64,000 nt of DNA. It comes from an uncultured Anaerolineae bacterium. Lineage in GTDB: Bacteria > Chloroflexota > Anaerolineae > VGOG01. Shown here piece by piece: positions 49 to 54,650 of this stretch (the first letter of the stretch is position 1; each line of letters opens with the position of its first letter). The position numbers and the translations under genes were made by a program. The stretch is taken from NCBI GenBank assembly GCA_964390805.1, contig CAYMKL010000014.1, forward strand, positions 706-64,705, written 5' to 3'. Under the pieces are notes generated by a model. It saw only the letters and a program-made list of their open reading frames with translations, was not told the origin of the DNA and did not search any database.

Positions 49-81
49 TGTTGAACCTAATTCCCTAGAGAGGTGACACCA

Positions 82-3135: not shown

Positions 3136-3176
3136 CTGTCATCCACCAGCTATCTGCTATCAGCCATCTGCCAACT

Positions 3177-6938: not shown

Positions 6939-6942
6939 AAGA

Positions 6943-9561: not shown

Positions 9562-9798
9562 GCGACACCGACGCCAGGGGTGCAGCAACCCGTGGCCCTT
9601 GCCACCCCGCTGCCGGTAGAGACCCCCGTTGGTGAACTGGGCACTGGCCAGTTCATCCTCCAGTGGGGTAACCAGGGTTCCGCTGCGGGGCAGTTTGAGG
9701 AGCCGGCGGAGGTAGCAGTGGATGTGGAGGGCAACGTCTACGTGGCCGACCTGGGCAACAAGCGGGTGCAGAAGTTCGAAAGCAAGAGATTACAATGA
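9562..9798 (+). pseudogene. detached single NHL repeat in frame with ORF3 (truncated tail; ATG at 9580 would give a 72-aa ORF)
   Basis: Same frame as 6931-9561, separated only by TAG; encodes ...QWGNQGSAAGQFEEPAEVAVDVEGNVYVADLGNKRVQKFE; stop overlaps ATG of next gene (ATGA). Confidence 0.4.
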
Positions 9799-18417: not shown

Positions 18418-18690
18418 GTGAAGTATTGGCGAAAGCCACTGGACATCGAACAACAGGAGATCCCTCGTGGTCGAATCCACATTTTGAGGGAACGGTGCAA
18501 GGGTTGTGGCTTCTGCGTGGAATATTGCCCACGCCGTGTGCTGGAGGTATCAGAAGAGTTTAACACTAAAGGCTATCACCCGCCTCGCATCAAAGACGAG
18601 GCGGCTTGTGTCAACTGTGGTCTTTGCGAGATGCTCTGCCCTGAGTTTGCCATCTATTTGAATGAAGCGGGGGAGGTGCCGGTACCGTGA
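18418..18690 (+). CDS. korD: 2-oxoacid:ferredoxin oxidoreductase delta subunit (2x[4Fe-4S] ferredoxin)
   Basis: 90 aa; CKGCGFCVEYCP and CVNCGLCEMLCP motifs; GTG start after GGGAGG; overlaps korA start. Confidence 0.8.
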   Translation: MKYWRKPLDIEQQEIPRGRIHILRERCKGCGFCVEYCPRRVLEVSEEFNTKGYHPPRIKDEAACVNCGLCEMLCPEFAIYLNEAGEVPVP

Positions 18691-19847: not shown

Positions 19848-19857
19848 TCAGTGTTAG
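19837..19857. repeat. heptamer array (ATCAGTG/AGTAATC) at korA 3' end
   Basis: ggtgatcagtaatcagtgtta. Confidence 0.5.
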
Positions 19858-19870
19858 GAGGTGAATAAGA

Positions 19871-20776: not shown

Positions 20777-20818
20777 TTAGTAAACAATGCCCGCTGATTA
20801 CTGATTACTCGTAACTGG
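20761..20818. repeat. inverted heptamer arrays (ATCAGTG ... TGATTAC) forming a hairpin between korB and korC
   Basis: catcagtgatcagtgattagta...ctgattactgattactcgtaactgg. Confidence 0.6.
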
Positions 20819-20834
20819 GCAAACCGGGGGAGTC

Positions 20835-21392
20835 ATGAGTCGAACAGAGATACGCTTAACTGGCTTTGGGGGGCAGGGCATCATTCTCTCAGGTTACATA
20901 ATAGGCAAAGCGGCGGCCATTCACGACAAGAAACAGGCCACTTTCACCCAGAGCTATGGCCCTGAGTCGCGAGGAGGAGCTTGTAGCGCTCAGTTGGTTA
21001 TCTCTGATGAGCACATTAGCTACCCTCATCTCACCGACCCGTCCATCTTAGTCGTGATGTCGCAGGAGGCCTACAACAAGTATGCTCCAACTCTGGGAGA
21101 AAAGGCTCTGCTCATCGTTGACGAGGACCTGGTGGAGATGGGCGAGGTAGCTGGCGATGTGAAGCTGCTCTCGGTCCCGGCTACGCGCCTGGCCGAGGAG
21201 CTGGGGCGGAAGATCGTGGCCAACATCGTCATGCTGGGCTTCTTCGCCGCTGTGACCGACGTGGTCTCCGTAGAGGCCATGCGGGAGGCAGTTCTTACCT
21301 CAGTCCCCAAAGGAACCGAGGAGTTGAACTCGAAGGCTTTTCAGAAGGGGTACGAGTACGGATCAGTGAACAGTAATCAGTGGACAGTCTGA
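20835..21392 (+). CDS. korC: 2-oxoacid:ferredoxin oxidoreductase gamma subunit
   Basis: 185 aa; IRLTGFGGQGIILSGYIIGKAA...QSYGPESRGG typical KorC/PorC. Confidence 0.88.
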   Translation: MSRTEIRLTGFGGQGIILSGYIIGKAAAIHDKKQATFTQSYGPESRGGACSAQLVISDEHISYPHLTDPSILVVMSQEAYNKYAPTLGEKALLIVDEDLVEMGEVAGDVKLLSVPATRLAEELGRKIVANIVMLGFFAAVTDVVSVEAMREAVLTSVPKGTEELNSKAFQKGYEYGSVNSNQWTV

Positions 21393-21433: not shown

Positions 21434-24400
21434 ATGACCAATCCGGTATTGATCTTGGGCGGGAGCATTGGTGGCCTGCAGGCTGCTCTTGATCTAGCCA
21501 ACTCAGGGCTAGAAGTATGCCTGGTAGAGAGATCGCCCTTTCTGTGTCCTGAGCCTGTCGAAGGGCTTGAGGGTGATGTTGCAACGCCCTCGCACCTTCT
21601 GGCAAGCAAGTTCCTGGAGGCAGTTAAACACCCAAACATCCAGGTGTTCACCAATGCTGAGGTGACGCCCCCCCTTCATCCCCCCCAAAGCTGGGGGGGA
21701 AAAGCGGGAGGGCGGGGCGATTTCCAGATCGAGCTGCAGCAGCACCCCCGCTACGTGGACATGGCCAAGTGCACGGCTTGCGGAGAGTGCGTCCCCGTCT
21801 GTCCCGTGACGATACAGCGCCCCAGCGTCGTAGCGCCCCAGCGTCCAAGCGAGCAGCGCGTAGACGCCAAGACGCTTGGACGCTTCGACGCTGATCGACC
21901 CATCTACAAGCCCGATAACGCTGTGCCGAGCATTTTCGCCATCGAAAAGCGCGAGCCAGCGCCCTGCAAAGTAGCCTGCCCAGCCGGCATCCACGTCCAG
22001 GGCTACGTGGCCCTCATCGCCCAGGGCAAATCCGCCGAAGCCCTGGCCCTGATCCGCGAAGCCATCCCCTTCCCAGGCATCTGCGGCCGCGTCTGCCACC
22101 ACCCCTGCGAGGATGCCTGTCGGCGGGCCGAGCACGACCAGCCAATTGCCATCCAATACCTCAAGCGCTTTGTAGCAGATTGGGAAAAGTCCAACCTCCA
22201 ACCCCCAACCTCCAACCTCCAATGTCCAATATCCAATATCCAATATCCAACCAAAGTTGCCATCGTCGGCAGCGGCCCCGCCGGCCTCACTGCCGCCTAC
22301 TTTTTGGCCCGCGATGGCTATCCTGTCACCGTCTTCGAAGCCCTGCCTGTAGCTGGTGGCATGATGGCGGTGGGTATCCCCGCGTATCGCTTGCCCAGAG
22401 ATGTCCTCCAAAGCGAGATCGAGGCCATCAAGGATTTGGGGGTGGAGATCCGCACCAACACCGTCGTCGGCCCGAACGGTGATTTGTCTTTGGATGACCT
22501 CAGAAGGGACTACGATGCCGTGTTCGTGGCGGTGGGCGCTCATGGCAGCCGTAAGTTGAACGTTGAAGGTGAAGATTTAGCCGGCGTGCTTCACGGGGTA
22601 GATTTCCTGCGGGAGGTGAACCTGGACCCTTCGACAGGCTCAGGGCGCGGCCGGGAGGTCACGGTCGGCCAGAAGGTGCTGGTGATCGGTGGAGGCAACG
22701 TAGCCATTGATTCGGCCACGGTAGCCAGGCGATTGGGAGCACAGCAAGTCACCATACTCTACCGTCGTTCCCGCGAGGAGATGCCCGCCAATTCATGGGA
22801 GATCGAGGAGGCTGAAGAAGAGGACGTCGCCTTTCAATTTCTGACGACGCCGACCAGGGTGTTGGGCGAGAATGGACGGGTGACCGGGTTGGAATGTCTG
22901 CACATGGAGCTGGGCGAGCCCGACGAGAGCGGGCGAAGACGGCCCATGCCCCTCCCCGGTTCGGAGTTCGCGGTTGAGGCGGATACGGTTATTGTGGCCA
23001 TTGGCCAGGTGTTGGATATTGGATATTGGATATTGGAGGCCTGCCCTGAGCCTGGCCTAAGGGTTGGAAATTGGATCGTCGCGGATCCTGTGACTCTGCA
23101 GACGAATCTGGAGGGCGTTTTCGCTGGCGGCGATGCGGTGACGGGGCCGGCTACGGTCATCGAGGCCATCGCCGCGGGGAAGCGGGCGGCCGAGTCCATC
23201 GCGCGATACCTTAGGGGCGAAGACCTGGCCACCGGACGCAGGTTGGGGCGGCCTGACATCTCCGGCATCGAGTACTACACCCCACCCGTCGTCGAGCCAG
23301 AAGCCAGGGTGCCAATGCCCAAGCTCTCCTTAGCTGAAAGAGTGGATTTTGCCGAGACCAACCTGGGCTTCAGCGAGAGGGAGGCCATGGCCGAGGCGGA
23401 GCGCTGCCTCTCCTGCGGCGTCTGCTCTGAGTGCCTGGAGTGCGTCAAGGTCTGCGAGCCGGGAGCCATTGACCACAACGCTCAATGGGAGCGCCTGAGC
23501 CTGAACGTGGCGGCGGTGATTCTAGCGGATGGCAGGCAACAGCAGGGTGTGTATTCGATTAAGCCTGGGGACGCGTTAGAAGCCTCCGCTGCCGCTGCCA
23601 AAGTCATGGCCGACCTGGCCGCGTATCGAACATTCCCTCCAGTTCCCTCTTTCCCTTCTCTTTCCGCCCCTTCCAGAATTGGCGTGTTCGTCTGCTGCTG
23701 TGGCAACGAGATCAGCAGCGTCGTGGATGTTGATGTGGTGGTAGGCGAGATTTGCCGTTTGCCCGGCGTGGCTCTCGCTGAGAATGTTCCCTTTGCCTGC
23801 CATGAGGAGGGGACGGCGGCCATCCAGCAGGCCATCGTCGAGGAGGACCTGGATCGGGTGGTGCTGGCTGCCTGCTCTTGCTGCTCCCTCGACCAGGTCT
23901 GCGACAGTTGTACCTACCAGCGGGTGCGCTGCAAACTTCAAACGCTAAACTCTAAACTCCAAACTGGCTTCGAGTTTGTCAACATCCGCGAGCAGTGTGC
24001 CTGGGTGCACGCCGACGAGCCGCATAGAGCCACGGCCAAAGCCAGGAGCATCATCGCCTCTGCCGTAGCCAAGGCGCGTCAGGATGAAGCCAGGGCCAGG
24101 AGCACTGTTTCCCTCGACCAAAGCGTGTTGGTGATCGGGAACGGGATAGCTGGCGCGGTTTGCGCCGACGCACTACAGGCCCAAGGTTTCCAGGTTTTCC
24201 GAAGCGAGCCCCCGCCTCTGACTGTGAGAGGCTCCGTAGGCAACTTCACGGCGATCATGCCTGAATCAGGCGGGGAACGGGAGCTGAGGATCGGTGCCAT
24301 CGTCCTGGCCTCTGAGGGCGAGTTGGATATTGGAAATCCGGGAGTCTTCGCCTACGATCCGGAAGATGGGTGTGATCCGCAGGTCTGGGGTTTGGCCGTT

Positions 24401-24697
24401 GCCTCCAGGGTCGCGGCTTTGCTGAACAGGGGTTGGGCCCTGGTCGAGCCCGTCGTGGCCCAGGTTGATCCTGCCCGATGCCGGGCATGCGGTACCTGCC
24501 AGGAGATCTGTGGGTTCCACGCCGTCAGGGTGCGCGAGAATGGACGGGGTGTCCTGGTAGCTCAGGTGGATGAAGCCGCCTGCCTGGGTTGTGGCACCTG
24601 CGCCGCTCACTGTCCGTCGGGGGCGATCACGGCAGGCTATTCGACGGATAGGCAAATCGAAGCGATGCTAGTTGAGTTGGTAGGTTGTAGGGGGTGA
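21434..24697 (+). CDS. large FAD/FeS oxidoreductase: HdrA-like domains fused to a GltD-like NAD(P)H-binding domain (HdrL/Flox-like)
   Basis: 1087 aa; N-terminal GGSIGGLQAALDLA FAD fold; CTACGECVPVCPV 4Fe-4S; GltD-like block (CKVACPAGIHVQGYV, KVAIVGSGPAGLTAAYFLARDG); second half (IGVFVCCCGNEI...NIREQCAWVH) alignable with hdrA 28017-30638; C-terminal CRACGTCQEIC and CLGCGTCAAHC. Confidence 0.8.
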   Translation: MTNPVLILGGSIGGLQAALDLANSGLEVCLVERSPFLCPEPVEGLEGDVATPSHLLASKFLEAVKHPNIQVFTNAEVTPPLHPPQSWGGKAGGRGDFQIELQQHPRYVDMAKCTACGECVPVCPVTIQRPSVVAPQRPSEQRVDAKTLGRFDADRPIYKPDNAVPSIFAIEKREPAPCKVACPAGIHVQGYVALIAQGKSAEALALIREAIPFPGICGRVCHHPCEDACRRAEHDQPIAIQYLKRFVADWEKSNLQPPTSNLQCPISNIQYPTKVAIVGSGPAGLTAAYFLARDGYPVTVFEALPVAGGMMAVGIPAYRLPRDVLQSEIEAIKDLGVEIRTNTVVGPNGDLSLDDLRRDYDAVFVAVGAHGSRKLNVEGEDLAGVLHGVDFLREVNLDPSTGSGRGREVTVGQKVLVIGGGNVAIDSATVARRLGAQQVTILYRRSREEMPANSWEIEEAEEEDVAFQFLTTPTRVLGENGRVTGLECLHMELGEPDESGRRRPMPLPGSEFAVEADTVIVAIGQVLDIGYWILEACPEPGLRVGNWIVADPVTLQTNLEGVFAGGDAVTGPATVIEAIAAGKRAAESIARYLRGEDLATGRRLGRPDISGIEYYTPPVVEPEARVPMPKLSLAERVDFAETNLGFSEREAMAEAERCLSCGVCSECLECVKVCEPGAIDHNAQWERLSLNVAAVILADGRQQQGVYSIKPGDALEASAAAAKVMADLAAYRTFPPVPSFPSLSAPSRIGVFVCCCGNEISSVVDVDVVVGEICRLPGVALAENVPFACHEEGTAAIQQAIVEEDLDRVVLAACSCCSLDQVCDSCTYQRVRCKLQTLNSKLQTGFEFVNIREQCAWVHADEPHRATAKARSIIASAVAKARQDEARARSTVSLDQSVLVIGNGIAGAVCADALQAQGFQVFRSEPPPLTVRGSVGNFTAIMPESGGERELRIGAIVLASEGELDIGNPGVFAYDPEDGCDPQVWGLAVASRVAALLNRGWALVEPVVAQVDPARCRACGTCQEICGFHAVRVRENGRGVLVAQVDEAACLGCGTCAAHCPSGAITAGYSTDRQIEAMLVELVGCRG
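21549..21566. repeat. PEPVEG/LRQAQD element copy
   Basis: cctgagcctgtcgaaggg encodes PEPVEG. Confidence 0.55.
21667..21718. repeat. C7/G7 palindromic element inserted in-frame
   Basis: cccccccttcatcccccccaaagctgggggggaaaagcgggagggcgggg encodes PPLHPPQSWGGKAGGRG; near-identical copy at 30003-30050. Confidence 0.75.
22189..22250. repeat. heptamer tandem array (CCAACCT/CCAATAT) in-frame
   Basis: ccaacctccaacccccaacctccaacctccaatgtccaatatccaatatccaatatccaa encodes SNLQPPTSNLQCPISNIQYP. Confidence 0.65.
22627..22645. repeat. PEPVEG/LRQAQD element copy
   Basis: cccttcgacaggctcaggg encodes DPSTGSG. Confidence 0.5.
23012..23066. repeat. heptamer array TTGGATA x3 (inverse of 22189-22250) plus partial PEPVEG element
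   Basis: gttggatattggatattggatattggagg ... cctgccctgagcctggcctaagggttgg encodes VLDIGYWILEACPEPGLRVGNW. Confidence 0.6.
23932..23966. repeat. heptamer tandem array (CAAACTC/TAAACTC) in-frame
   Basis: gcaaacttcaaacgctaaactctaaactccaaactgg encodes KLQTLNSKLQT. Confidence 0.55.
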
Positions 24698-24911: not shown

Positions 24912-25301
24912 ATGGCTGAAACGGAACCACGTGTCGTTGTGTTCACTTGTAACTGGAATGCCTACAGCGCGCTGGAGACGGCCGGCTCTAGGCGATTGGC
25001 TTATCCGGCCAACGTGCGCCCCATCCGGGTGATGTGCCTGGGACGGCTGCATCCGGGCCTCATTCTCAAGGCGTTTGAGTTGGGAGCCGATGGTGTCTTG
25101 CTCCTGGGCTGCCCGCCTGGAGAATGTCACTACGAGTTCGGCAACGAGCGGGTGGAAGAGCTTTTCCAGGAAACCAGCGCCATTGCCCATCTCCTGGGCA
25201 TCAAGGACGAGCGGTTGAAGCTGGATTCGGTGGGAGCAGGGGAAGGTGAGGCCTTCGTTCAGAAAGTGGCGGAGTTCTATCGGCAGGTTGTAGGGTTGTA
25301 G
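24912..25301 (+). CDS. mvhD: MvhD-like hydrogenase/heterodisulfide reductase iron-sulfur subunit D
   Basis: 129 aa; VVFTCNWNAYSALETAG...MCLGRLHPGL...GCPPGECHYEFGN Cys pattern of MvhD. Confidence 0.8.
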   Translation: MAETEPRVVVFTCNWNAYSALETAGSRRLAYPANVRPIRVMCLGRLHPGLILKAFELGADGVLLLGCPPGECHYEFGNERVEELFQETSAIAHLLGIKDERLKLDSVGAGEGEAFVQKVAEFYRQVVGL

Positions 25302-25352: not shown

Positions 25353-26531
25353 ATGGAAGCCATTAAGCACATCATCAACAACACCAAAGCCTATTATTGC
25401 CTGGAGTGCGGCAAGTGCACTGCGATTTGTCCCATCTCGCGCCGGGAAGCTACCTACTCGCCTCGCCTGACGGTGGAGAGGGCCTTGTGGGGCGAAGGAG
25501 AGGAGCTATTGACCGATGCGCTGCTCTGGTCTTGCCTCACTTGCCAGCAATGCTCGACGCGCTGCCCCTCGGCTGTTCATTACGTGGAGTTCATCCGTGA
25601 CATGCGAGCTTTGGCGCGCGGGGAGGGTGAGGAGGGGCTCTGTTCGCACGGCGAAGCGATCCAGACCTGGATGCGGATGATGGCTTCGCCCGAGTTGAAG
25701 CAAAACCGCTTGGAGTGGCTCGATGAGGATCTAAAGGTTTCTGCCGACTCCGACACCGTCTACTTCGTCGGCTGCCTGCCGTATTACGACGTTCTTTTCA
25801 ACAAGATCGGCGCCCAGGGTGTGGAGATTGCCCAAAGCGCCGTCAGGGTGCTCAACCGATTGGGCATCAAGCCCATCATCTTGGAGAACGAGCGCTGCTG
25901 CGGCCACGACCTTCTGTGGGAGGGCGATGTCGCCAACTTCCGCAATCTGGCCGAACCGAACATCGCGATGCTCCAGGCGACAGGGGCCAAGCGCATCGTC
26001 ACCACCTGCCCCGAGTGCGCTCGCACACTAAAGGTTGACTACCCCGCCCACGTAGGCGACCTGGGGATGGAGGTAGTGCACATTTCACAGCTTCTGGCGG
26101 ATTGGAAGTTTGAAGTTGGAACTTCCCCCCCAAAGCCTGCCCTGAGCAAGGTCGAAGGGTTGGGGGGGATTGAGGGGGGGCTTAAAGTCACCTATCACGA
26201 TCCCTGTCGCCTGGGGCGGCACCTGGGCGTATACGAGGAACCGCGCCAGGTCATGAGTGTCCTGGGCCTGGAGTTGGTAGAGATGGAGCACAGCGGCAAG
26301 AACGCCCTGTGCTGCGGCACCAGTTGTTGGACCAATTGCGGGGCCGTCAACAAGCAGATCCAGGTGGACCGCCTGCGTGAAGCCCAGGCCACCGGTGCCG
26401 AGTTATTGGTTACTGCCTGCGCCAAGTGCCAGATCCATTTCAAATGCGCTCTGGACGATGCAAGAGTCAGTAACGAGATAGGGATTGAGATACGCGATTT
26501 GGTCACTTTGGTGGACGAAGCATTGGCTTAG
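25353..26531 (+). CDS. HdrC-HdrB-like fusion (2x4Fe-4S ferredoxin domain + two CCG cysteine-rich domains)
   Basis: 392 aa; CLECGKCTAICP and CLTCQQCSTRCP; CCGHDLLW and ...CCGTSCW...CAKC CCG-domain motifs. Confidence 0.8.
   Translation: MEAIKHIINNTKAYYCLECGKCTAICPISRREATYSPRLTVERALWGEGEELLTDALLWSCLTCQQCSTRCPSAVHYVEFIRDMRALARGEGEEGLCSHGEAIQTWMRMMASPELKQNRLEWLDEDLKVSADSDTVYFVGCLPYYDVLFNKIGAQGVEIAQSAVRVLNRLGIKPIILENERCCGHDLLWEGDVANFRNLAEPNIAMLQATGAKRIVTTCPECARTLKVDYPAHVGDLGMEVVHISQLLADWKFEVGTSPPKPALSKVEGLGGIEGGLKVTYHDPCRLGRHLGVYEEPRQVMSVLGLELVEMEHSGKNALCCGTSCWTNCGAVNKQIQVDRLREAQATGAELLVTACAKCQIHFKCALDDARVSNEIGIEIRDLVTLVDEALA
26097..26187. repeat. compound repeat: TTGGAAG heptamers + C7/G7 element carrying a nested PEPVEG element
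   Basis: ttggaagtttgaagttggaacttCCCCCCCAAAGcctgccctgagcaaggtcgaagggttGGGGGGGattgagGGGGGGG encodes WKFEVGTSPPKPALSKVEGLGGIEGGLKV in-frame in hdrCB-like gene. Confidence 0.7.
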
Positions 26532-26608
26532 TTTGGAAGTTGGACGTTGGAAGTTGGATGCTGGATGTTGGCCTTCAAATCTCTGACTTCCAACCTCTAA
26601 TCTCCAAC
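26532..26608. repeat. inverted heptamer arrays (TTGGAAG x5 ... TTCCAAC/CTCCAAC) intergenic hairpin
   Basis: ttggaagttggacgttggaagttggatgctggatgttgg...cttccaacctctaatctccaaca. Confidence 0.65.
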
Positions 26609-26620
26609 AAGGAGGAGGAA

Positions 26621-27961
26621 ATGGTTGAGAGAAAGATCGTGGTCATCGGTATGGGCTATGTGGGCATTCCTTGCGCAGTACTCTTGGCCGATGTGCCCGG
26701 CCACCAGGTGATAGGAGTGCAACGTCGCTCCGAGCGCTCCGGATGGAAGATTGATGTCTTGAATCAGGGCAAAAGCCCCTTTGAAGGAGACGAGCCAGGG
26801 CTGGCCGAGCTGATCGCCCGGGTGGTGGAAAAGGGAACGTTCCGAGTGACAGACGACATTTCGGTCTGTAAGGACGCCGACGTCATCTTGATTGACGTGC
26901 AGACGCCGACCGATACCCGCAGGGTCCCTCAATATCGCTCCCTGCGCGAGGTCAGCACCAGCGTAGGCCAGTACATGCAGAAGGGCACTCTGGTGACTAT
27001 TGAATCAACAGTCGCGCCCGGTACGACGCAGAACATCGTGCAGCCCATCCTGGAAGAGACCTCCGGACTGAAAGCGGGTCAGGACTTCTACCTGGCTTTT
27101 TCCTACGAGCGGGTGATGCCGGGCAAGCTTCTGGAATTCATGGTGGATTTCCCTCGCGTGGTGGGGGGCATTGATGCCAAGAGCACGGAGTTGGCAGTGG
27201 AGCTGTACAGCACCATTGTCCGGCAGGAGATCACGGCCACCGACGTCCTCACCGCCGAGCTGGCCAAGACGGTGGAAAACGCCTATCGGGACGTCAACAT
27301 CGCTTTCGCCAACGAAATAGCGCTGATCTGTGAGAGCCTGGGAGTGGACGTCTACGAGATGCGGGGGCTGATCAACGCCCGCCCGGACCGCTACATGCAC
27401 ATTCCAGGAGCCGGCGTGGGCGGACATTGCCTGCCCAAAGACACCTATTTGCTGCGCTTTGGGGTGAAGGAATACGGCTCCCGCGACGTGGACACGGCGA
27501 TGATCACCCTGGCCCGCCGTATCAACGACGCCATGCCGGATCAGATGGCTCGTCTGGTGGAGGAGGCGCTGACTGGGGTAGGCAGGGAGGTCAAGGGATC
27601 GCGGGTGGCCGTCTTGGGGCTCGCCTACCTGGAGGATTCGGACGATGTCCGCAACACCCCGGCTGAACCGCTGATCAATACCTTGCGGGCCAGAGGTGCC
27701 TGGGTCATGGCTCACGATCCCTTTGTCTGGGGCTACCAGGGCAAGGAGCTGACCCGTGATCTGGATGAAGCTCTGCGCGGAGCCGACTGTCTGGCCCTGG
27801 TCACCAAACACCAGATGTACTTTGGGTTGGATCTGGAGCGCGTGAAGGGATTAATGCGCACGCCGGTCATCGTTGATGGACGCAACGTCTTTGACGCAAC
27901 AACGTGCCGGGAAGCGGGGTTTGTTTATCGGGGAATTGGGAAGGGGATGCATGAAACGTGA
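26621..27961 (+). CDS. nucleotide-sugar dehydrogenase (UDP-glucose/GDP-mannose dehydrogenase family; WecC/WbpA-like)
   Basis: Start ATG 26621 after GGAGGAGG RBS (frame open from 26540 inside repeat); KIVVIGMGYVGIPCAVLLA Rossmann; GHCLPKD catalytic-Cys motif. Confidence 0.82.
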   Translation: MVERKIVVIGMGYVGIPCAVLLADVPGHQVIGVQRRSERSGWKIDVLNQGKSPFEGDEPGLAELIARVVEKGTFRVTDDISVCKDADVILIDVQTPTDTRRVPQYRSLREVSTSVGQYMQKGTLVTIESTVAPGTTQNIVQPILEETSGLKAGQDFYLAFSYERVMPGKLLEFMVDFPRVVGGIDAKSTELAVELYSTIVRQEITATDVLTAELAKTVENAYRDVNIAFANEIALICESLGVDVYEMRGLINARPDRYMHIPGAGVGGHCLPKDTYLLRFGVKEYGSRDVDTAMITLARRINDAMPDQMARLVEEALTGVGREVKGSRVAVLGLAYLEDSDDVRNTPAEPLINTLRARGAWVMAHDPFVWGYQGKELTRDLDEALRGADCLALVTKHQMYFGLDLERVKGLMRTPVIVDGRNVFDATTCREAGFVYRGIGKGMHET

Positions 27962-28003
27962 AACGTGAAACGTGAAGCGTGAGGACCACGTTTTACGTTT
28001 TCG
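27954..28003. repeat. inverted heptamer arrays (GAAACGT x4 ... ACGTTTT x2) hairpin between sugar dehydrogenase and hdrA
   Basis: gaaacgtgaaacgtgaaacgtgaagcgtgaggaccacgttttacgttttcg; supplies ET* terminus of upstream gene. Confidence 0.65.
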
Positions 28004-28016
28004 ACGGGAGGTGCAA

Positions 28017-30638
28017 ATGGCTAAGCAAGACCTGCGCATCGGCGTTTTCGTCTGCGACTGTGGGCTCAACATCGCTGGGAGCGTGGACACCGAGGCGGTG
28101 CGGGAGTACGCCGACACGCTGCCCGACGTGGTGGTGGCGGTTGGCAACAAGTACACCTGCGCCGACCCCGGCCAGCAGGAGATCAAGCGCCACGTGGTGG
28201 AACACAGGCTCAACCGGGTGGTGGTGGCCTCTTGTTCGCCCCGCCTGCATGAGCCAACCTTCCGCAACTGCATTCAGGAGGTGGGCCTCAATCCCTATCT
28301 CATGGAAATGGCCAACATTCGGGAGCACTGCTCCTGGGTGCATCTCCACGACAGGCAGGCGGCCACCCGCAAGGCCGAGGACATCGTGCGCGCGGCGGTG
28401 GCGCGGACCCGCTGGCTCCTTCCCCAGATCGAGGAACAGTTGCCCGTGACCGACGCAGTGCTGGTCATCGGCGGGGGTGTGGCTGGCATCCAGGCCTCTC
28501 TCGACCTGGCCGACGCCGGCCATCAGGTCTATCTCGTAGAAAAGGAGCCCTCCATCGGTGGGATCATGGCCAAACTGGACAAGACCTATCCCACTATGGA
28601 CTGTAGTATATGAATACTGGGCCCCAAGATGATGGATGTCGGTCGGCATCCCAAGATCGAACTTTTAGCTTATAGCGAGGTGGAGGACATCTCTGGCTAC
28701 GTGGGCAACTTCAAGATCAGAGTGCGCAGGAAAGCCCGCTACGTGGACGAGAGTGAGTGCACCGCCTGCGGCGACTGCGTCCCGGTCTGCCCGGTGGTCA
28801 AGCCCGACGAGTTCCAGACGGGCCTCTCCAGCCGCCGAGCCGTCTACATCCCCTTCCCCCAGGCTGTGCCTTCTTCGTATATCATCAACATCCAGGAATG
28901 TCTGGGCGATAACCCCATTGCCTGCGGCAAGTGCATGGAGGCTTGCGACAAGAAGTGCATTGATTTCGACATGCAGGATGGGATCGTCGAATTCCAGGCA
29001 GGGACCGTCATCGTAGCTACGGGGATGGAAGCCTACGACCCCACAGAGATGGATGAGTACGGCTATACTCGCTACGAGAACGTCATCACCAGCCTGGAGT
29101 TCGAGCGGCTGATCTCTGCCGGCGGTCCCACCGAAGGCCATTTAGTCCGCCCCACCGATCGGCGGACGCCCCAGCGCATCGGCTTCGTGCAGTGCGTCGG
29201 CTCCCGCTCCCAGGCTCGTACTGAGCCCGGTCGAAGTAATGGGCGGGGCAATCCCTACTGCTCCAACATTTGTTGCATGAACACCGTCAAAGACAGCCTC
29301 CTGCTCAAAGACCACTACCCAGACACCGACATCACCGTTTTCTACATGGACATGCGGGCTTTTGGCAAGGGCTTTGAAGACCTCTACATGCGCTCCAAAG
29401 CGGCGGGGGTCAGGTACATCAGGGGCTTGCCGGGCGAGGTGACGGAGGATGCCGAAACGCGCAACCTGCGGGTCTGGGTGGAGAATACCAGCGCGCGGCG
29501 GCTGGAGGAACACGAGTTGGACATGCTGGTGCTCTCCATCGGCGCCGTGCCCCGCCAAGACAGCGAGGTGGTCAAGCAACTCCTCACCCTCTCCCGCACC
29601 TCCGATGGCTTCTTCATGGAGTCGCATCCCAAGCTGAAGCCAGTGGACGCGCCGACGAAGGGCGTCTTCCTGGCCGGCTGTGCCGAATCGCCCAAGGACA
29701 TCAAAGACTCAGTTACCCAGGCCTCTGCCGCCGCCTCTCGCGCCGAGATCCTGTTGAGTGCTCCCACCATCAAAGTGGAGGCCATCACCGCCGTTGTTGA
29801 CGAAGCGCTGTGCAAGGCCTGCGGACTGTGTGCCCCGGTTTGTCCTTATGGCGCTATCACCTGGGAGAAGAAGCAGACGGCCCACGTGATCTCGGCCGCC
29901 TGTGCTGGGTGCGGCACTTGCGCCGCCGAATGTCAATATGAGGCCATCACCATGCGCCACTTCTCCGACCAGGCCATCTACGCCATGATAGATGCCATGC
30001 TCTCCCCCTTCATCCCCCCCAAAGTTGGGGGGGAAAGAGGGGGGGCGGCCAAGCCGCCCATCGTGGCTTTTGCCTGCAACTGGTGCTCGTATGCGGGAGC
30101 GGACACGGCGGGGGTGGGGCGCATGGAATACCCGCCCAATGCTCGCCTGATCCGCACCATGTGCTCCGGGCGAGTTGATCCTGAGTTTGTGTGGTACGCC
30201 TTCCGGAAAGGAGCGCCAGTGGTGCTGGTCTCCGGCTGTCACTACGCCGATTGCCACTACATCAACGCCAACCGCCAGACCGTGCGCCGTGTTGACGCCT
30301 TGTGGGAGGGCCTGGAGAAGCGGGGTGTGCGTCCTGAGCGCTTGCAGTTGGACTGGGTCAGCGCCGCCGAGGGGCAGAAGTGGGCCAAAGTGATGCAGGA
30401 TCTGGACGAGCTGTGGGCGGGGGTCACAGCCGAGGAAATGGAGCAGACTCGCCAGGCGTTGAAAGAGGCCAAGACGCCCATTCGTGGCTCCCTCGACCGG
30501 CTAAAGAAACCGACGGCGGCCACGATGGTTTGTGTGCGCTGCGGCAACAAGTGGGATGTCACCTACGATCCTGCTGTGGACGAGGAGCGTATGTGCTCGA
30601 AGTGTCGGAGCAACAGCGTGCGGGTGTTGATCGTGTAA
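28017..30638 (+). CDS. hdrA: heterodisulfide reductase subunit A fused to C-terminal MvhD-like domain; predicted selenoprotein (in-frame UGA 28611-28613)
   Basis: ATG 28017 after GGAGGTG (frame open from 27972); 27972-28613 and 28629-30638 share frame, separated only by TGA; readthrough gives FPTMDCSI-U-ILGPKMMDVGRHPKIELL = conserved HdrA motif with Sec at Cys position; downstream 4Fe-4S motifs; C-terminal CNWCSYAG...CSGRVD...GCHYADCHY MvhD domain. Confidence 0.75.
28611..28613 (+). other. predicted selenocysteine (UGA) codon within hdrA
   Basis: TGA aligned to the second Cys of the HdrA DCSxC-ILxPK motif. Confidence 0.6.
28634..28651 (+). promoter_or_regulatory. candidate SECIS-like hairpin downstream of UGA
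   Basis: GGAUG-UCGGUCGG-CAUCC, 5-bp stem, loop contains GGUC; begins 21 nt 3' of UGA. Confidence 0.3.
30003..30050. repeat. C7/G7 palindromic element inserted in-frame in hdrA
   Basis: cccccttcatcccccccaaagttgggggggaaagagggggggcgg encodes PFIPPKVGGERGGAAKP. Confidence 0.75.
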
Positions 30639-30757: not shown

Positions 30758-33700
30758 TCACCGCGTACCGATCACCAGCAAATCGAACGGGCCGACCGAG
30801 CGGATGTTCCCGGCCCGGTCCAATGCCTCTACCTGCAAGGTGTACAGGCCAGCCGTCTTCGGCCTGGGCGTGTAGCTCCACGTCGAACCGCCCCGATCCG
30901 CGACGTGCCAGAAGGAGTCACCCTCGGGCGTGTCCAGACGAACGTAGACCTCGCTCACGCCGCCGCCGTCGCTGACCGTGCCGACCAGCACCGGCGGGGG
31001 CGCCGTCTCGGTCGCCTTGTCCGTATCCGTGACCGGCTGGTACGCATCCAGCAGGATTTCGCTGATATGGGTGATGACGGCCACTGCTGGCGGGACGGTG
31101 TCCACCTGATAGGTGCGGCTCAGCGGCACCGTCGAGCGGTTGCCCACCGCGTCGAGGCCGTAGAAGGCGATGGTCTGGTACTCGCCGTCCGCGTCCTGCA
31201 CCGTCGCCGGGGCGTAGGTCCAGGTGCCGGTGGGCGTCGTACCCGGGCGCACGTCCACAGGCCAGCAGGTTGGTTCGTCCGGAGCGACTGAAGTCGCTAC
31301 TACGGTGCTCTGCCGGCCCCTGTTGCTTCCCTTCATCTCCAGCCCTTCGGCCTCGCTCAGGACAAGTGGCAGGTAGATGGTGTAAGGATACCGCCTACGC
31401 GCCGGACTGACGCAGACCTCCAGCCCGCTGGCCTGCCGGTCGTCGTGCACCTGGCCCGTGAAGAGGTGCTCGCCGAGGCCCAGCACCGTGTCAACCAGCG
31501 CCGCGTCCACGTCGGCGTCGAGGGTGACGGTGGGCGGGGTGGTGTCCACGATCAGCGTCAGCCAGTCCGTCCAACTGCTGGTGTGGCCCAAATCGTCGGT
31601 GGCCTGGGCGCGCAGCGCGAACTGGTCGCCGTCGTTGGCTGCACCCACGTCCCAGAGGCACGACCACTGGCCGTCCTCGTGGGTGGCGTCGGGGCAGGCG
31701 ATGGTGACCGGCGAGCCACCTGGCAGTGCCTGCGCTTCCAGCGTGACGATGGGCACGCCAGAGGGGTCGTGGACGATGCCGTGCACGGCGTTGGCGTAGG
31801 GTCGGATATAGGTTGCCGGTGCTGTAATCGTCAGGCTGATGGGCGCGGCGCTGTCCACGTCGTGCTGCACCCAGATCCAGTCGAAGGTGCCATGGGTGCC
31901 ATCGGCGACGCTGGCCATCACCTCGGCCGAATCGTCGTCCAGGTCGCTCTCCACGATGCCGCTGAAGCCGAGGGTGGCCGTGATGCCTGCGCTCACGTCG
32001 CCCAGGCTCAGCACCAGCGTGTCGCTTCCGGCGAAGTGCAGCGCGCCGCGCGCGGTGGCAGTGACGCGTACGTCGGGGGCAACCTCCGTTCCCTCGTTGG
32101 CATAGCGGACGGTGTAGTTGATGACCTGCCCGTCGTGGACAGGTTCGGGGTCAACGTCGACTGGCAGGACCAGGTCCACGATGGAGTCCAGGTCGGCGTC
32201 GAGGAACTGGTCGGGCGTCAGCAGGCTGTACAGGTCGTGCTCCAGGAAGCCCAACTCGACGCCGGGCGGGTCGGCCACGATGTCGACGTGCACGTCGGCG
32301 TCGGTGAACTGGCCCTCGGCAGGGCAGACTCCCGCTCCCAGCGACGCCCACTCGTACTGCTGGGTGAGGGTGAAGTGCTGCGTCGTGAGGACCGGGCCGG
32401 GGGCGTCAATGACGCGCTCGCTGTTGAGAGGGTTCTTGTCCGGCATAGCGGCCCACAGCCGCAGCCCGTCCTCCTCGCTGGCCAGGGCGACCAGGTCGAG
32501 GGACGTAGCCGCCGGGTCGGTGATGCCCAACAGGTCGAACGGCAGGTAGACGTCGGTGTGGGGCAGTAAGTGGGCGGTGCGCTGTCCTGAGCCTGTCGAA
32601 GGATCGAACTCGTAGTATTGGGGTGGGAGAGGTGCGTCCTCGATCCACTCGTCCCCATCCCAGCGCATCAGCGCGACGGCATCGGCGTCCTCTATCCAGA
32701 GCATGTAGTCGGCCTCCAGTTGGCGGCCGTTTTGGGCCGGCAGACCGATGACGGTCACTTCGGCTGAGCTCAGTGCAGGATTGGTCATCGTAGCGGTGTA
32801 GGGGTTGAAGGCCGTCGTCGCGCCACCGGGTGCACCGGTGTCGAAGTAGACGAAGATGTCGCCATCGCCAGCCCAGTCGGCGCCGCCCCAGGCGAGTCGC
32901 AGGGCCTCGTCGTTCCAGGTCAGGTAGAGCTCCTGGACTTCATTGAGGGCCGCGCCGGTGTGAGCGTTGCGCAGCACTTCACGGTTGACGCCGATCTGAG
33001 AGCAGCCGCTATCCATCCAGCCGTGATAGTTGCCCCCACCCCCGGCCCCTCCCCCAACCCTGGGAGAGGGGAGGATGTAGTCAGGCGTGGTAGGCGTGTC
33101 TGCATAGATGGGTCCCAGGGTGTGCCAGCGTTGGTTGCCGTGCACGTCCTGGGCGACGACGTGGGCATAGAGCGCCTGGGCTTCGCCAGCCTGCTGCTCG
33201 TGGTGGCGGTCTGTGGCCAGAGCGTACGTGGTGAGCGCGGCCAGGTCGGGCGTGGGGCTCTCGGTCCAACCGGCGTAGTAACGACCTAGGTCATCGCTGC
33301 TGCTGGCGGTCCACTCGAGGATGAGTGTGGGGCCGAGGACGTCGCGGATGGTATGGCCGGATGTGAGCACCGTGCGCCTGCCCAGGCCGTTGATGTAAGC
33401 CAGCGTAACGGTGACGGGCGCGGGCTTCACCAGGTCCACGGTGACGGTCTCGGTGACCTGCGCGGTGCGCCCGGCCACGTCGGTGGCGCGGGCGGTGACG
33501 ACGTAGGCCACGCCGTCGGGCTCGCTGCCCAGGTTCCAGGTGTAGCGCCAGGCGCCATCGTGGAGGGAAGCGTCGTTCCAGGCGTCCGAAGTGGTTACCT
33601 GTACCCGCTCTACGCCCCCGGTGTCGGTGACGAGGCCGGTGAGGGCCACGCGCCCCAGGGAGAGGCGATGGGTGGTGGTCAGCACGGTTGGCTCGACGGA

Positions 33701-36700
33701 TACCCACGGCGGCTGCGTGTCCACGATGACGGTGTCTGGGCGCGGGTCGGCCTGCACGCGGCCGGCCCAGTCGGAGGCGACAGCCAACAGCGTGTGTGGC
33801 CCCTCATCTGTAAGCGTAAGCGACGGAACCCAGGTGGTGCTCCAGAGCGTGTCGGTGATGGCGCCGTCGGGCCAGGTGGCGGCGTCCAGGAACGCGCCGT
33901 CCACGGTGACGGTGATGGTGTGCAGGGAGTCCACCGCGTAGGCGCCCACGGTCACACTGACGGGCTCGGTGCTGGTCAGCACGCTCTCGTGGGTGGGGGT
34001 GAGGACGGCGGCGTCCAGCAGTGCGTCCTGCTGGGCCAGCGCCAGGAGCAGGGTGCCAGCCGTTTTCGTGGTGCAGCGACCATGGATGTCGCAGGCTGTG
34101 ACCTTGGGGAACGGAGGCGGATCCGGGTGCCCAGGGACGGTGCAGGAGGGCGTCAGTTGGTAGAGCTGCGTGGCGTCGCTGGTCCAGGTGCGCCACCAGT
34201 CCGTGTCGAAGTAGTGACGGTCAGCGGCCTGCACTGAGCAGGGGCCACATTCAAAGCCATCCTCGACCAGATTGAAGTCCTTGGCCCAACAATCATAGGT
34301 GGTCTCGGCACTGGCGCCTGCGCCACGGAGGGTGACAGTGATGGCGACGCGGGGGGCGAGAGTATCAATCTCTCCGCGCCAGTGGTTCCAGGTGGATTGA
34401 TTGTCGTTGCGGTTGTCGAAGACGTCGTTGCCGCGCAGGTCAATCTGGTAGATGCCGTCCAGGTCGGCCGGGATGGGGTGGCTCCAGCTCGAGGTGGTGA
34501 CACCCTTGCCCGACTGGGCCAGTGCGGTATCCTCCCAATCCGGCTCCGTTACAGCGTGCGAAGCTAAGCCATCGGCGGGGGTGAAGGCGATCTCCAGCCC
34601 ATCCAGCCCTATAGCAATGTAGGTGGGGTCCATCACCGCGCCGCTCAGGGTCACTGTCTGAGTGATGGTGGTCGTTGAGGGGTCCGGGTAGGTCAACTCG
34701 GCGACCGGGGCGGTGTGGTCCAGCAGGATGAGGATGCCTGGGTAGTCCTTCTCCGGCGTGCGATTGCCCACCTCGTCGGTGGCGCGGGTGATGAAGACGT
34801 AGTCACCGGTGGGATTGGCCACGGCCTCGGTGTCGTCGTTGAAGATGGGGAGGACGTAGTCAATGGCCCAGGCCCTGCCCTGAGCTTGTCGAAGGGTATC
34901 GCCGTCCAGTGTGGCTTCCTGCCAACCGTCGCCCGATATGACCTCTGCGTCCAGGGGATCAGGGTCGGTCAGGAGCACCTCAACAGACCGGACACCGCTG
35001 CCCGGCTCTGAGCCGGCCATCGGGTCGCTGACGGTGCCATGCAGCGAGACGGTCCAGCGGTTCTGGGCGGTGAGCGTGGCAGTGACGATGGTGAAGTTGA
35101 CGATGTCGGTGTCCAGTTGTGGCGGGGAGCTGTCGAGGATGACGTCGGTGCCGGGGCCGGGTGTCTCGGTGTGGCCGACGACGTCCACGGCGCGGGTGTG
35201 CAGGGTGTGGCGGCCGTCGGCGTACCTGTCCACGCGCCAGCCATAGGCCCAGGATTCGTGGCCTGTGGCCGCCTCCCAGGGGTCGTTGTCTACGCGGACC
35301 TCGACGCGGTCTATGCTGGAGGTGGGGTCGTGGGCGTCGCCGCCGATGATGAGCGTGCCGGTGGCGGAGATGTACTGGCCGTGACTGAGGGAGGTGAGGG
35401 TGGAGGTGGGCCAGTCGGCGTCAATGAGCACGGGGGCGGCCTCGTCCAGGCTGATGTCGCCCAGCCAGGGCAGCACCTCGCGCAGGTAGAGGCGGTGCAG
35501 GAAGATATACCTGAATTGCCCCCACTGCCACCACGGTGCGACATTCGTCGTGACGGCGCAGTTGTGGTCATCACACGCCAGTGACATGCCGCGGGGCACT
35601 AGCTCGGGGTACATGGTTTCGTACGTTCCCCGACCGGAGTACCGGCTCCAATGCACAGCGTACGATTGTCCAGAGGCTCTGACGCTACCATTGGCCGCCA
35701 AAGCCTGATAAGCCACACTGCTGGGGGAGTCCCACCAGTCAGGGCCGTGCTCCCACATCGCTAACCAGCCTTTGTGTTGGGGGTCGTAAGCCACCCGCGG
35801 GTAGTAGAGCTCGCGGTCGCTACCCTTGGTGCCGATGGTGAACGCGCTCCCTACGCTGGAATCCTGCACGAAGTGACCACGTATCTTTTCTCCCTCGTAG
35901 CGGTAGACCACCAGCGCCTTGTCGGTGTTGGGGTCGTAGGCCACCTGGGGCAACTCTTCCATGCTATTTGTGTAGGCGATCTTGCCGCAACTGTCACTGA
36001 CGTAGTGGCCGTTGCCGTCCAGGTAGGCGTACCACACGTCGAAGTCGGCACTGCTGAAGTGATTCTCCCAGACGGCGACGTAGTTGCCTCCGACGTAGGC
36101 CAGATCCACGTAGCGATCCTCTCTGACACCTTGCGCTCCACGGCTATCCAGCCGCTCCTCATGGCTGTCGACGTCGCCGTCGTTGGTCACGATCCGGGTC
36201 TTGATCTCCCAGTCATCGTGCAGCCGCTGCCAGCCGACAAGGAAGTCGGAGCCGTTGGTGGCGACGGAGGGTTCTTGCTCGTGGTCATGGCTCCTGACGA
36301 TGGAGAAGGACGACTTCACCAGTTGCAGATTTGGCCCAACGATGGCGGCGTAGATGTCGAAGTCGTCGGAGTGCTCCTCTGCCCACACCACCAGGCACCG
36401 ACCGTTGTTGGCGCAGGCGATGGCGGGTGGATGGGCGGCCTTGTCATAGTCGCCGTCATCCACGTGTAGGGAGGCACCGTCGAGATTGTCGCCGGCCTGA
36501 TAGACGACGATGCGGCCCGTGACCTCGTTGTCGTCCTCGTCTGTGGAGTCGGCCTCCAGCGCGGCCACCACGTAGTCGCCGCTCCAGCCCGACGCCGGGG
36601 CAATGGCTGAATACCAGGGGTACTTGCCACTGGCTGCCTCTCGATGGCTGTCCTGCCGCGGGTCCCAGGTCCAGGTGGACTCCACACTGCCGGCGTGCAA

Positions 36701-39700
36701 CTGCGAGGTCATCTCGTTGGCGATGTCCACGCTCTGAGAGCCGGCGCCGCCATCCACGACAACGTCGGTGGAGACGGTCTCTGCCTCTCCCTGGAAGAGG
36801 TCGAAGGAGGTGGACAGGTCGGTGGCCTCCAGCACGGACGGGAAGGTGACCGTCAGCCCACCCAGGGCATAGAGTTCCTGGGAGAGGTTGTTGCGCACGG
36901 TGGAGGTGTAGGCGAAGGTCACCCCAGGCGCGACGATCCAGTCCTCGTCGTCGCTCTCAGGATAGATGCCCAACCCGCTGGTGGTGAACGCCTTGGGGTG
37001 GGTCCCCAGGGTGTGCTCAGCTAAGTCGCTCAGACCGTCGCCGTCCTCGTCGGCTATGAACGGGCTAGAGGTGACGTGGGTCTTGAGGTGGTTGGCGGCG
37101 TCGTATTCGAAGTCCCAGCCGTCCAGTTCCTCTTTGTCGCTCAGGCCGTCGCGGTCCGTGTCGCGGTTGTCCGGATTGGTACCCAGGCGCACCTCCTCGC
37201 CATCGGAGAGGCCGTCGTTGTCGCTATCTCTCGACAGGGGGGAGATGTCGGCCCCACCGTTTTTGGCCCCGGCGGCGCGCATCCGCAGCTCGTATTTGTC
37301 GGACAGGCCATCGCCGTCGGAGTCCCACCTGCTGTCGTCGGGGTCGTTGCCGTGGTGGGCGAAGGAGAGCAGGCCATCGCCATCGGCGTCCGCCTGTGGC
37401 CGGAAATCGTCGCCCCAGTTGAGGGCATAGAACTCGTCCAGCGTGGCGGGGAAGACGTCGAACACGACGTGTTGGCCCATGTGTAGTGACAGACTGTCGT
37501 CAAACGTCTGGTCGCTGCACACGAAGCCATGGCTGGTGGTCCAGCACTCGACGCAGGGGATGGCGTAGCCCACGTTGAGGTAAACCGGCATGGTGCGGTT
37601 GACGCCGGCCTGGAGTGGGACGTCGTTGACTGACAGACCGCTTTGCACCCAACCTCGGTACATCGTATTGAACGAATAGGTGTGATCCTCCTCGACGTCC
37701 TGCCAGGCGGAGGACATCTCACCACGGCTGGCAGAGACATCCTGTTCACTTCGGTTCAGTTGGTAGTTGAAAGTGGTAGATCGTAGATTACTCTCAGTGT
37801 ACAAGACCGGCACCCAGCCTGTTACGCGCCAGCCCTCCGGGTCCTGATGGACAATGGTTGTGGTCAGGTTTGTGCTGAGGGCCAACGTGTTGCCTGCCCT
37901 GAGACCTCGTGAGGGATTGCCCAGCGACATATTGAGTTCGCCCATAGTTGCGTCGGACTCGATGGTGGGCTCTACGTGGTAGATGAGACTGGCTATCTTC
38001 TCCGTCAACCAGCCGCTGATGGTCGGCAGACCCAATGCCGCGAGGACGACGTCAATCAGCGACACGATGGCGACGATGATGAGGCCAATCACGGTGAGGG
38101 CGATGATGAACATCACGATGAGCAGGATGGTGGCAGCGATGCTCTGAGCTAGCAGTTGGTTGTACTCGATGCTTCCCGCCTCCATGTCGCTGGCCTGGAC
38201 GAAAAAGGTCACCCAGACGATGATGGCGCCGATGATCAGGCCGATGAGGCCGCCCCATTTGGTGGCGCCGACCCAGGTGTGCGATGCGCACAAGTAGATC
38301 TTCATGGAGGCGAGGAAGCCGAAAGCGGAACTCCTGATCATCTCCACCACCGCCGTGATGTAGCCGATGAGCTTGATAGTGGTCATCAACCCGCCTATGA
38401 GGATGTTCAGCCCAATCTCGACCCACTTGACCCCGTTGAAGTAGGCGGAAACCAGCATAGTAACCAGGGCCACGACGGCGGCCAGGGTCAGGGTGACGGC
38501 GATACCCCGGCCCCAGCCTGAGCCCAGCCACTTCAGCCAGTCGTACTTTTCGGCCAGTGCACTGGGCCACCGCCAGAGCCACTCGACGTAAGCGAGTCTC
38601 GCTAATCCCGCTTTCAGCGACACCTGGCCCAGATACCTCCAGAAGGACTCCACTGAGCGGGGGTTGATTCCCGCCAGAGCCAGCTTGTAAACTGCCTCGA
38701 TGACTTTCTCGATCACTTTACCGCCTGTCTTCAGGGCCTCGGGCTCCTCCAACTGGGCAGCCTGCGATTGCAGCACATCGTCTCCCACCTGGACGATGCT
38801 GTTGACCCCATTGTAGAGCACGAGGTAATACAACTGGATGCCCAGCAACAGGCCGGCCGCCAACTCTTCATCCTCATTGAGAGTGGGATAACGGCGCGCC
38901 AGTTCGCGCCAGTATTCGTCAATCGGGCAGGCTTCCCATGCCCCGCTGCGGTAGCGGTAGGGAGCCCAGTTGATTCCGGCCAATGTTTGTACTGGCACTC
39001 CGTCAGCACCGCTAGGGGGCAGGTCCACGGTGAGCTGGCTGCCGCTCCATTGGACGTTGCTGCCGTGGCCCTGGACGTCCAGGTTGACCACACGGTAGTG
39101 CTCTTCGCGGGCGAACATGAGCGTGGGGGTGATGGGCCCCGACGGCGACCAGTGGGCGGTGAACACATCATTCAGGATAGCCTTGGTGTCGGTCATGGGG
39201 ATGGTGGCCCGTGCCACGTCCAGGTGCTCGTAGGTGTGGATTTCCACGTGCAGGATGTTGGGGATGTTCCAGCGTTGCTCCTCGGTGTACGCGCCGTTGG
39301 TGGTGCGGTTGAAGCGGTTGTAGATTTCGGCCACGGTGACGTCGCGCTGACCATTCTCGTCTGCGTCTTGCCCGGACAGGAAGGTGTAGTCCAGCCCGTT
39401 GGCCAGCACGACGAGGCTGGCGTCGTCGTTGAGGTCATCATCTACCTGCGGGTCTTCGTAGATGAAGGCCACATCTGTGCCATGATCCTCGCGCACGCTC
39501 AGGCCAGTCAGACGCCAGTCATCGTGGTAGGTCTGCACCACGCGCAACTGGTTCTTCTCACTGTACTTCGCGCAGATGCCGTCATCGTACTCCTCGCAGA
39601 CGTCCACCAACGCGTGCACTAGCCAGACCAGCCGCACCTGCTGGGCATTGCCCCAACCCCCCTCGGTCCCCCCAGGTAGGGGGGAGGATGGCCGGTAGAG

Positions 39701-54630: not shown

Positions 54631-54650
54631 GGTAAACTCCTTTCGCACTC

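Follow-up and report, generated by a model that had tools for sequence, protein, structure and literature searches.

A probable selenocysteine codon with a predicted SECIS hairpin in an hdrA2 gene from an uncultured Anaerolineae bacterium

Introduction

We analysed a stretch of 64,000 nucleotides from an uncultured Anaerolineae bacterium (contig CAYMKL010000014.1; hereafter the window, meaning the whole stretch), which carries a gene for an HdrA-type flavoprotein broken by a single in-frame TGA. Two open reading frames (ORFs) lying in the same frame, 27972-28613 and 28629-30638, are separated by the TGA at 28611-28613 and by nothing else, as the initial annotation of this DNA had reported. The comparative analysis described here indicates that this TGA is very probably a true selenocysteine (Sec) codon within one hdrA2 gene, and that the hairpin following it is a functional selenocysteine insertion sequence (SECIS). 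The features at the locus are as follows.

28017-30638, forward strand: hdrA2 gene, encoding HdrA with a C-terminal MvhD domain and a tail; 873 codons including one UGA (Sec199)
28006-28013, forward strand: Shine-Dalgarno-like GGGAGGTG, 3 nt upstream of the ATG at 28017, recognised from sequence
28602-28604, forward strand: TGT codon of Cys196, the Cys of the putative CxxU pair; this codon (-3) specifies Cys in all loci compared, Sec (58/58) and Cys (15/15) alike
28611-28613, forward strand: UGA predicted to be read as selenocysteine (Sec199); aligns with Cys197 of 5odc_A
28634-28651, forward strand: SECIS-type hairpin GGAUGUC-GGUC-GGCAUCC, 7 bp with one G-U pair in the window; loop GGUC at 28641-28644
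30060-30410, forward strand: MvhD (FlpD) domain, all-Cys and with no further UGA; PF02662 E = 2e-45, residues 682-798

Results

Architecture of the interrupted gene

The initial annotation had started the gene at a GTG at 27972. We instead assign the true start to the ATG at 28017, because GGGAGGTG precedes it and because the tblastn matches of relatives begin at this Met, residue 1 of MAKQDL; the arrangement GGAGGTG-N-ATG is kept around the start in the related loci L001 and L003. When the TGA is translated through, residues 5-662 of the product match residues 3-650 of the solved HdrA 5odc_A in one unbroken HMMER stretch (E = 5e-237). The printed alignment shows the Cys motifs to be conserved, and the HdrA core is colinear with the solved protein through the N-terminal iron-sulfur (Fe-S), thioredoxin-reductase-like flavin adenine dinucleotide (FAD), inserted ferredoxin and C-terminal ferredoxin domains. 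Pfam likewise finds FAD and Fer4 domains followed by a C-terminal FlpD/MvhD domain, and MvhD chains in the PDB match the C-terminal part of the product (E = 1e-36 to 1e-42). With Cys substituted for Sec at the stop, the query reaches 1177.5 bits with NCBIfam model NF040770 ('HdrA2'), whose curated cutoff is 1100, and covers profile positions 1-775 of 777. By these matches the gene is assigned an HdrA2 architecture in which HdrA is fused to MvhD, and the fusion proposed in the initial annotation is thus real.

Downstream of the MvhD domain, at 30429-30638, a tail of ~55-70 residues carries a CxxC...CxxC arrangement (MVCVRCGNKW...MCSKCRSN) that resembles a zinc ribbon. It is missing from most ~817-aa homologs (94% coverage) and present in a few, for example the 865-aa P0074.

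The UGA in related genomes

The UGA falls on the second Cys of the motif D-C-S-I-C, which is Cys197 of 5odc_A as counted on the printed alignment, so that the motif reads D-C-S-I-U. Relatives' loci were collected by scanning one genome per GTDB species, yielding 80 loci from at least eight bacterial phyla. At the aligned codon these have TGA in 65 cases, TGT in 10 and TGC in 5. Chance is excluded, because the high-scoring alignment continues across the stop and the same TGA recurs in 65 of 80 relatives. The claim that the UGA sits on a conserved Cys therefore stands, and close relatives do not resolve into two genuinely separate genes at this point.

The closest of the 80 loci (80-91% identity) come from metagenome-assembled genomes (MAGs) labelled Anaerolineae or Chloroflexota. 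Further loci are labelled Zixibacteria, Calditrichota, Ignavibacteria, Cytophagia, Fidelibacterota/Marinimicrobia, KSB1, Eiseniibacteria, Desulfobacterales and Dehalococcoidia. In a neighbour-joining tree built from the 340 residues surrounding the UGA position, all 15 Cys loci group together in one clade that is nested within the Sec loci; by parsimony this corresponds to a single change. The Cys clade also has F in place of Y at codon -8 and V in place of I at codon +1, and its SECIS has decayed.

Protein databases present the gene differently. The 25 closest homologs listed (84-100% identity) are all ~640-680 aa long (638-683), start after the TGA and span only 75-77% of the hdrA2 query. 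Full-length homologs of ~817 aa are 65-68% identical; several of these are named HdrA2 and come from Dehalococcoidia or Chloroflexota.

Codon-level conservation was compared between 58 Sec sequences and the 15 Cys loci. Codons +1 to +5, which encode I-L-G-P-K between the UGA and the first ATG, are invariant as amino acids in 58/58 Sec loci, with a synonymous entropy of 1.25-1.83 bits at the four degenerate codons and 0.87 bits at the two-codon Lys. Invariance of the amino acids combined with free synonymous change means that this segment is translated and is no untranslated spacer. TGA is also the ordinary stop of 9 of the 22 confident genes in the window, and therefore the code is not reassigned.

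The immediate context of the UGA is biased as well. Codon -1 (28608-28610) is ATA in 55/58 UGA loci, with 0.29 bits of entropy as against 1.27 bits in the Cys loci, and base +4 (28614) is always A in the 58 Sec loci, where the codon specifies Ile (Val in the Cys loci). This bias may reflect a context effect on Sec insertion or on termination. Codon -8 specifies Tyr in the Sec loci and Phe in the Cys loci.

The window was also scanned for other ORFs broken by a TGA whose flanks reach 50 aa or more. This gave 106 candidates, none of them convincing except that at 28611 when judged by flank length and context only, an outcome that fits a sequence of 61% GC with many spurious ORFs.

A candidate SECIS hairpin downstream of the UGA

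Inside the ORF, 20 nt separate the UGA from the stem of the hairpin at 28634-28651, which is encoded by the D-V-G-R-H-P codons. The initial annotation had placed a candidate SECIS here; the location is borne out by frozen synonymous sites and by compensatory changes confined to the UGA homologs, while the proposed 5-bp stem with an 8-nt loop is the outer part of a 7-bp stem closed by a GGUC tetraloop. Every UGA sequence (66/66) can form GGAUG(U/C)C-GGUC-G(A/G)CAUCC, with 99.8% of cells paired, and the apical GGUC loop is invariant among them. In the Cys loci the hairpin is decayed without exception (15/15), with 3-6 of the 7 pairs retained.

Codon use follows the same division. The Sec loci have GAT in 58/58, GTC in 50/50, GGT in 58/58 and CAT in 58/58, with Arg encoded by CGA or CGG only. 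Synonymous entropy is 0 at codons +8, +9, +10 and +12 in the Sec loci only; it is 0.8-2.2 bits at the codons flanking the hairpin in the same sequences and 1.0-2.0 bits at the hairpin codons of the Cys loci. The peptide D-V-G-R-H-P is conserved in the Cys homologs too, so part of the conservation of the hairpin is explained by protein constraint, and it is the synonymous sites that separate the two effects.

Moreover, pair 6 of the stem covaries. Over 66 sequences it is U-A in 51, C-G in 7 and U-G in 7, with a single C-A mismatch (Fisher p = 4e-5 in the 58-sequence set). To reach the C-G state, Val GUC must become Ala GCC and Arg CGA must change silently to CGG. Seven tips scattered over the tree have this state, each beside U-A sisters, and it thus represents about seven independent double changes.

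In the fdhF SECIS of E. coli, G23 and U24 of the apical loop are determinants of SelB binding, and a bulged U17 in the 5' arm of the upper stem is essential (PMC8659212). Given the comparative evidence above, 28634-28651 is very probably a bacterial SECIS, for which recruitment of SelB is predicted.

Predicted decoding and function

We propose that the hairpin, positioned 20 nt past the UGA in the mRNA, acts as a SECIS by the known bacterial mechanism. It would recruit the complex of SelB, guanosine triphosphate (GTP) and selenocysteyl-tRNA, SelB·GTP·Sec-tRNA(Sec), to the ribosome, where the UGA would be read as Sec instead of stop. Read-through would yield an 873-residue HdrA-MvhD flavo-iron-sulfur protein in which Sec199 and Cys196 would form the CxxU pair of the thioredoxin-reductase-like FAD domain, a role transferred by alignment from the literature on archaeal HdrA.

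Two roles have been published for this residue. In solved HdrA, Cys197 of one protomer of the dimer donates a ligand to the [4Fe-4S] cluster in the N-terminal domain of the other, on the route that leads from FAD to ferredoxin (PMC9012536). A 2026 electron cryo-microscopy study of the Hdr-Vhu-Fwd complex of Methanococcus maripaludis found a selenylsulfide-like feature, formed by Sec197 and a Cys, between the A3 cluster and FAD; its authors propose a thiol-selenol relay and call the role unresolved (PMC13518236). Cys197 as counted in 5odc_A bears the same residue number as Sec197 of M. maripaludis HdrA (PMC13518236), a match of numbering. We infer that Sec199 and Cys196 are the same CxxU pair as in M. 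maripaludis HdrA. Under either published role, Sec199 would lie on the low-potential branch leading to ferredoxin.

Gene neighbourhood

The hdrA2 gene closes a run of redox genes with one interruption.

18687-21392: subunits of a 2-oxoacid:ferredoxin oxidoreductase, at the start of the gene run before hdrA2
21434-24697, forward strand: 1087-aa mosaic flavoprotein with a thioredoxin-reductase-like HdrA fragment, a GltD/NfnB-like module, HdrA N-terminal Fe-S and a C-terminal ferredoxin
24912-25301, forward strand: stand-alone mvhD; PF02662 E = 4e-41; same position in L023 and L039
25353-26531, forward strand: HdrC/HdrB-like fusion (hdrCB) with a 4Fe-4S dicluster and two CCG domains; Pfam CCG and Fer4_8, NCBIfam HdrC/TfrB-like
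26540-27961: UDP-glucose/GDP-mannose dehydrogenase (ugd), between hdrCB and hdrA2 (1525-2889 in L001)

Relatives from other phyla carry a large flavoprotein gene first, then mvhD, hdrCB and hdrA2. A homolog of hdrCB encoding ~380 aa stands directly upstream of hdrA2, and abuts it, in L023, L025 and L039; in L001 it lies two genes upstream. The HdrC/B-fusion protein encoded at 25353-26531 is therefore a likely partner subunit of HdrA2. The mosaic flavoprotein comes first in the conserved order, and related C-terminal parts are found upstream of mvhD in L023, L025 and L039. Gene order thus points to the HdrC/B-fusion protein, MvhD and the large mosaic flavoprotein as partners, with which HdrA2 would most likely make up a flavin-based electron-bifurcating module; the bifurcating activity is a prediction from this arrangement.

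The initial annotation had used the product of 21434-24697 as an HdrA-like sibling for comparison and remarked that its gene contains no UGA. By its domain content, this protein is not a simple HdrA paralog: its N-terminal thioredoxin-reductase-like HdrA fragment is without the CxxC/U. The remark about the UGA is true and uninformative, because the protein has no CxxC motif altogether. Its N-terminal domain, without an equivalent of Cys197, recalls the complementary HdrA pairs of anaerobic methanotrophic (ANME) archaea (PMC9012536).

Among the loci examined, the dehydrogenase gene is part of the run only in the window and in its closest relative, L001, which suggests that ugd was inserted into a conserved redox operon. 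Between the ugd stop (27959-61) and the ribosome-binding site of hdrA2, at 27952-28003, a long hairpin (-27.7 kcal/mol, z = -3.37) arises from the pairing of three TGAAACG heptamers and two degenerate copies with ACGTTTT repeats further downstream. L001, which is 91% identical, has a different heptamer-repeat hairpin at the same site (~2885-2990), made of GGGACAA with CCCTAGT/CCCTGAT repeats, and L003 has none at the corresponding site. The heptamer hairpin could be a terminator of the inserted ugd or a repeat-hairpin element.

Elsewhere in the window, two giant adjacent ORFs on the reverse strand, 30758-41695 (3645 aa) and 41863-54648 (4261 aa), together take up 24 kb. Their products contain bacterial Ig-like, TSP3, Kelch, FG-GAP and DUF11 repeats and are presumably huge surface or adhesin-like proteins. 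The regions 73-13016 on the forward strand and 60042-61892 and 61959-63938 on the reverse strand encode several large paralogs that combine an Agl23-like (flippase-associated) membrane domain with NHL/ScyF-like repeats, as well as a protein with a chlor_Arch_YYY domain. Such families are characteristic of Chloroflexota and Archaea, in agreement with the taxonomic placement derived from the HdrA2 relatives.

Discussion

Several observations weigh against decoding of the UGA as Sec. ARAGORN found no tRNA-Sec in the 64-kb window or in the first 60 related loci; the window holds no tRNA of any kind, and Pfam and NCBIfam detected no selA, selB or selD among its large ORFs. The assignment of Sec is a prediction from sequence comparison. 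Regarding the hairpin, it overlies the conserved peptide MDVGRHP, so its sequence is partly constrained independently of any RNA function; six of its seven pairs never vary, and structural covariation rests on one pair. Folding of the window sequence alone gave the 60 nt that follow the UGA no advantage over shuffled versions (z = +0.44), and the case for the hairpin is therefore a comparative one. No Rfam family matches it, either in the whole window at gathering thresholds or in 28540-28740 at E <= 10, and Rfam may have no model for such an element. Finally, the stem is perfect and lacks the bulged U that the fdhF SECIS of E. coli requires. To our knowledge, that requirement is not universal among bacterial SECIS elements.

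How else might the TGA be explained? It could be a true stop that splits the gene into an N-terminal Fe-S fragment of ~198 aa and a second fragment of ~669 aa, started at the ATG at 28629 and assembled with the first non-covalently. Gene callers do annotate the locus in this way, as the ~640-680-aa entries beginning after the TGA attest; ATG codons are available 6-7 codons downstream of it; and split or permuted HdrA, in the order hdrA_N-unknown-hdrA_C, exists in Deltaproteobacteria (PMC1794560). However, the codons between TGA and ATG behave as translated sequence in all 58 Sec loci, the uninterrupted Cys homologs conserve both Met codons just as well, and no ribosome-binding site is evident before 28629. 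The stop also lies exactly on a Cys that homologs keep, and the SECIS-type hairpin co-occurs strictly with TGA. We therefore consider a split gene highly improbable. Still harder to credit is that the gene is a pseudogene, or that TGT or TGC became TGA through an error of sequencing or assembly. The sequence probably derives from a MAG, in which single-base errors occur, and one base separates TGY from TGA; yet the same TGA is found in 65 independently assembled genomes, the 669 downstream codons are under strong purifying selection (84-91% amino-acid identity to the closest relatives), and the synonymous constraint is specific to the hairpin. Both the split gene and the pseudogene were rejected on codon-level conservation.

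Alternatively, the UGA might be translated as Cys, Trp or Gly, through a near-cognate or suppressor tRNA or a reassigned code, with the hairpin serving as a generic stimulator of read-through. The missing Sec machinery in the window and the missing bulged U would be compatible with this. Reassignment of the code was ruled out by the stop-codon usage of the window. The position belongs to a Cys/Sec pair, and Sec has been seen structurally at this residue in the family (PMC13518236); the invariant GGUC loop holds the G-U recognised by SelB (PMC8659212); and Chloroflexi with tRNA-Sec and selenoproteins are known (PMC1794560, PMC5389517). The tRNA-Sec reported from Chloroflexi includes an 8/4 type. 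Insertion of an amino acid other than Sec thus appears about as improbable as a split gene, and decoding as Sec remains by far the best account of the UGA at 28611-28613.

In summary, the gene is a newly identified, mis-annotated member of an already well-known selenoprotein family. HdrA is catalogued as such, with a CxxU motif and model NF040770 (PMC13188914, PMC9312934), and its Sec form is documented in Methanococcales and Methanopyrus (PMC2933860, PMC11097638) as well as in Deltaproteobacteria and Clostridia (PMC1794560), in keeping with the background given in the initial annotation. Current understanding is thus unchanged, Sec-HdrA having long been established in methanogens and several bacterial groups. 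What is mildly new is only the breadth and uniformity of the Sec form and its SECIS in uncultured anaerobic phyla, and the single nested clade that reverted to Cys. The Sec form was found mostly in uncultured anaerobes, including Anaerolineae, Zixibacteria, Calditrichota, MAGs labelled Ignavibacteria or Cytophagia, Marinimicrobia, KSB1 and Eiseniibacteria. We tentatively raise the possibility, without holding it to be the likelier case, that the Sec form with its almost invariant 18-nt SECIS is the majority form of bacterial HdrA2 (65/80 species-level genomes) across at least eight phyla, systematically annotated as truncated proteins of ~640-680 aa and reverted to Cys in one clade. If this is true, Sec decoding in uncultured anaerobic lineages would be much wider than catalogued.

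For annotation, the locus should be recorded as one selenoprotein gene of 873 codons rather than as two ORFs, and dozens of ~640-680-aa database entries from related MAGs need the same correction. The pattern UGA-N20-GGAUGYC-GGUC-GRCAUCC could be used to find further Sec-HdrA2 genes. Judged by its closest relatives, the organism is an Anaerolineae-like member of the Chloroflexota; it probably decodes Sec, and if so its electron-bifurcating Hdr-type module would need selenium.

Comparison with known systems

Among bacterial relatives, the locus resembles the Sec-HdrA genes of Syntrophobacter, Syntrophus, Moorella and Carboxydothermus, which are likewise from anaerobes, have a SECIS within the ORF and often occur with MvhD/FrhD and a GlpC-like CCG protein (Zhang et al. 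2006, PMC1794560). By published description, the Sec-HdrA genes of Deltaproteobacteria and Clostridia belong to glpC-hdrA-frhD-frhG-frhA hydrogenase operons, several of whose other products are selenoproteins (PMC1794560). In contrast, the window locus has no hydrogenase genes, and its MvhD and CCG proteins use Cys.

The Methanococcales HdrAu of M. maripaludis and M. jannaschii belongs to the same family and shares the domain order over residues 5-662 and the CxxU motif. Archaeal SECIS elements lie in the 3' untranslated region and not within the coding region, whereas the predicted SECIS of the window lies inside it. The Methanococcales enzyme reduces CoM-S-S-CoB, while the bacterium of the window is a non-methanogen; and MvhD/VhuD is a separate subunit in the solved archaeal complexes but is fused to HdrA here.

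Compared with E. coli fdhF, the hairpin is similar in lying within the ORF just after the UGA and in presenting G-U in its apical loop; the loop of the fdhF SECIS is also GGUC. It differs in that its stem begins 20 nt after the UGA rather than 11 nt, and forms a perfect 7 bp with no equivalent of U17.

Closest in overall design is HdrA2 itself, as represented by NF040770 and named after HdrA2 of Methanosarcina: the product scores above the cutoff of that model, and upstream mvhD and hdrCB genes are common to both. The window gene departs from the Cys-type HdrA2 of Dehalococcoidia and Chloroflexota, to which it is 65-68% identical, by the UGA, and hence the predicted Sec, at the second CxxC position and by the SECIS hairpin. 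From most ~817-aa HdrA2 it is further set apart by the extra CxxC...CxxC tail. The window locus also differs by the ugd gene inserted between hdrCB and hdrA2.

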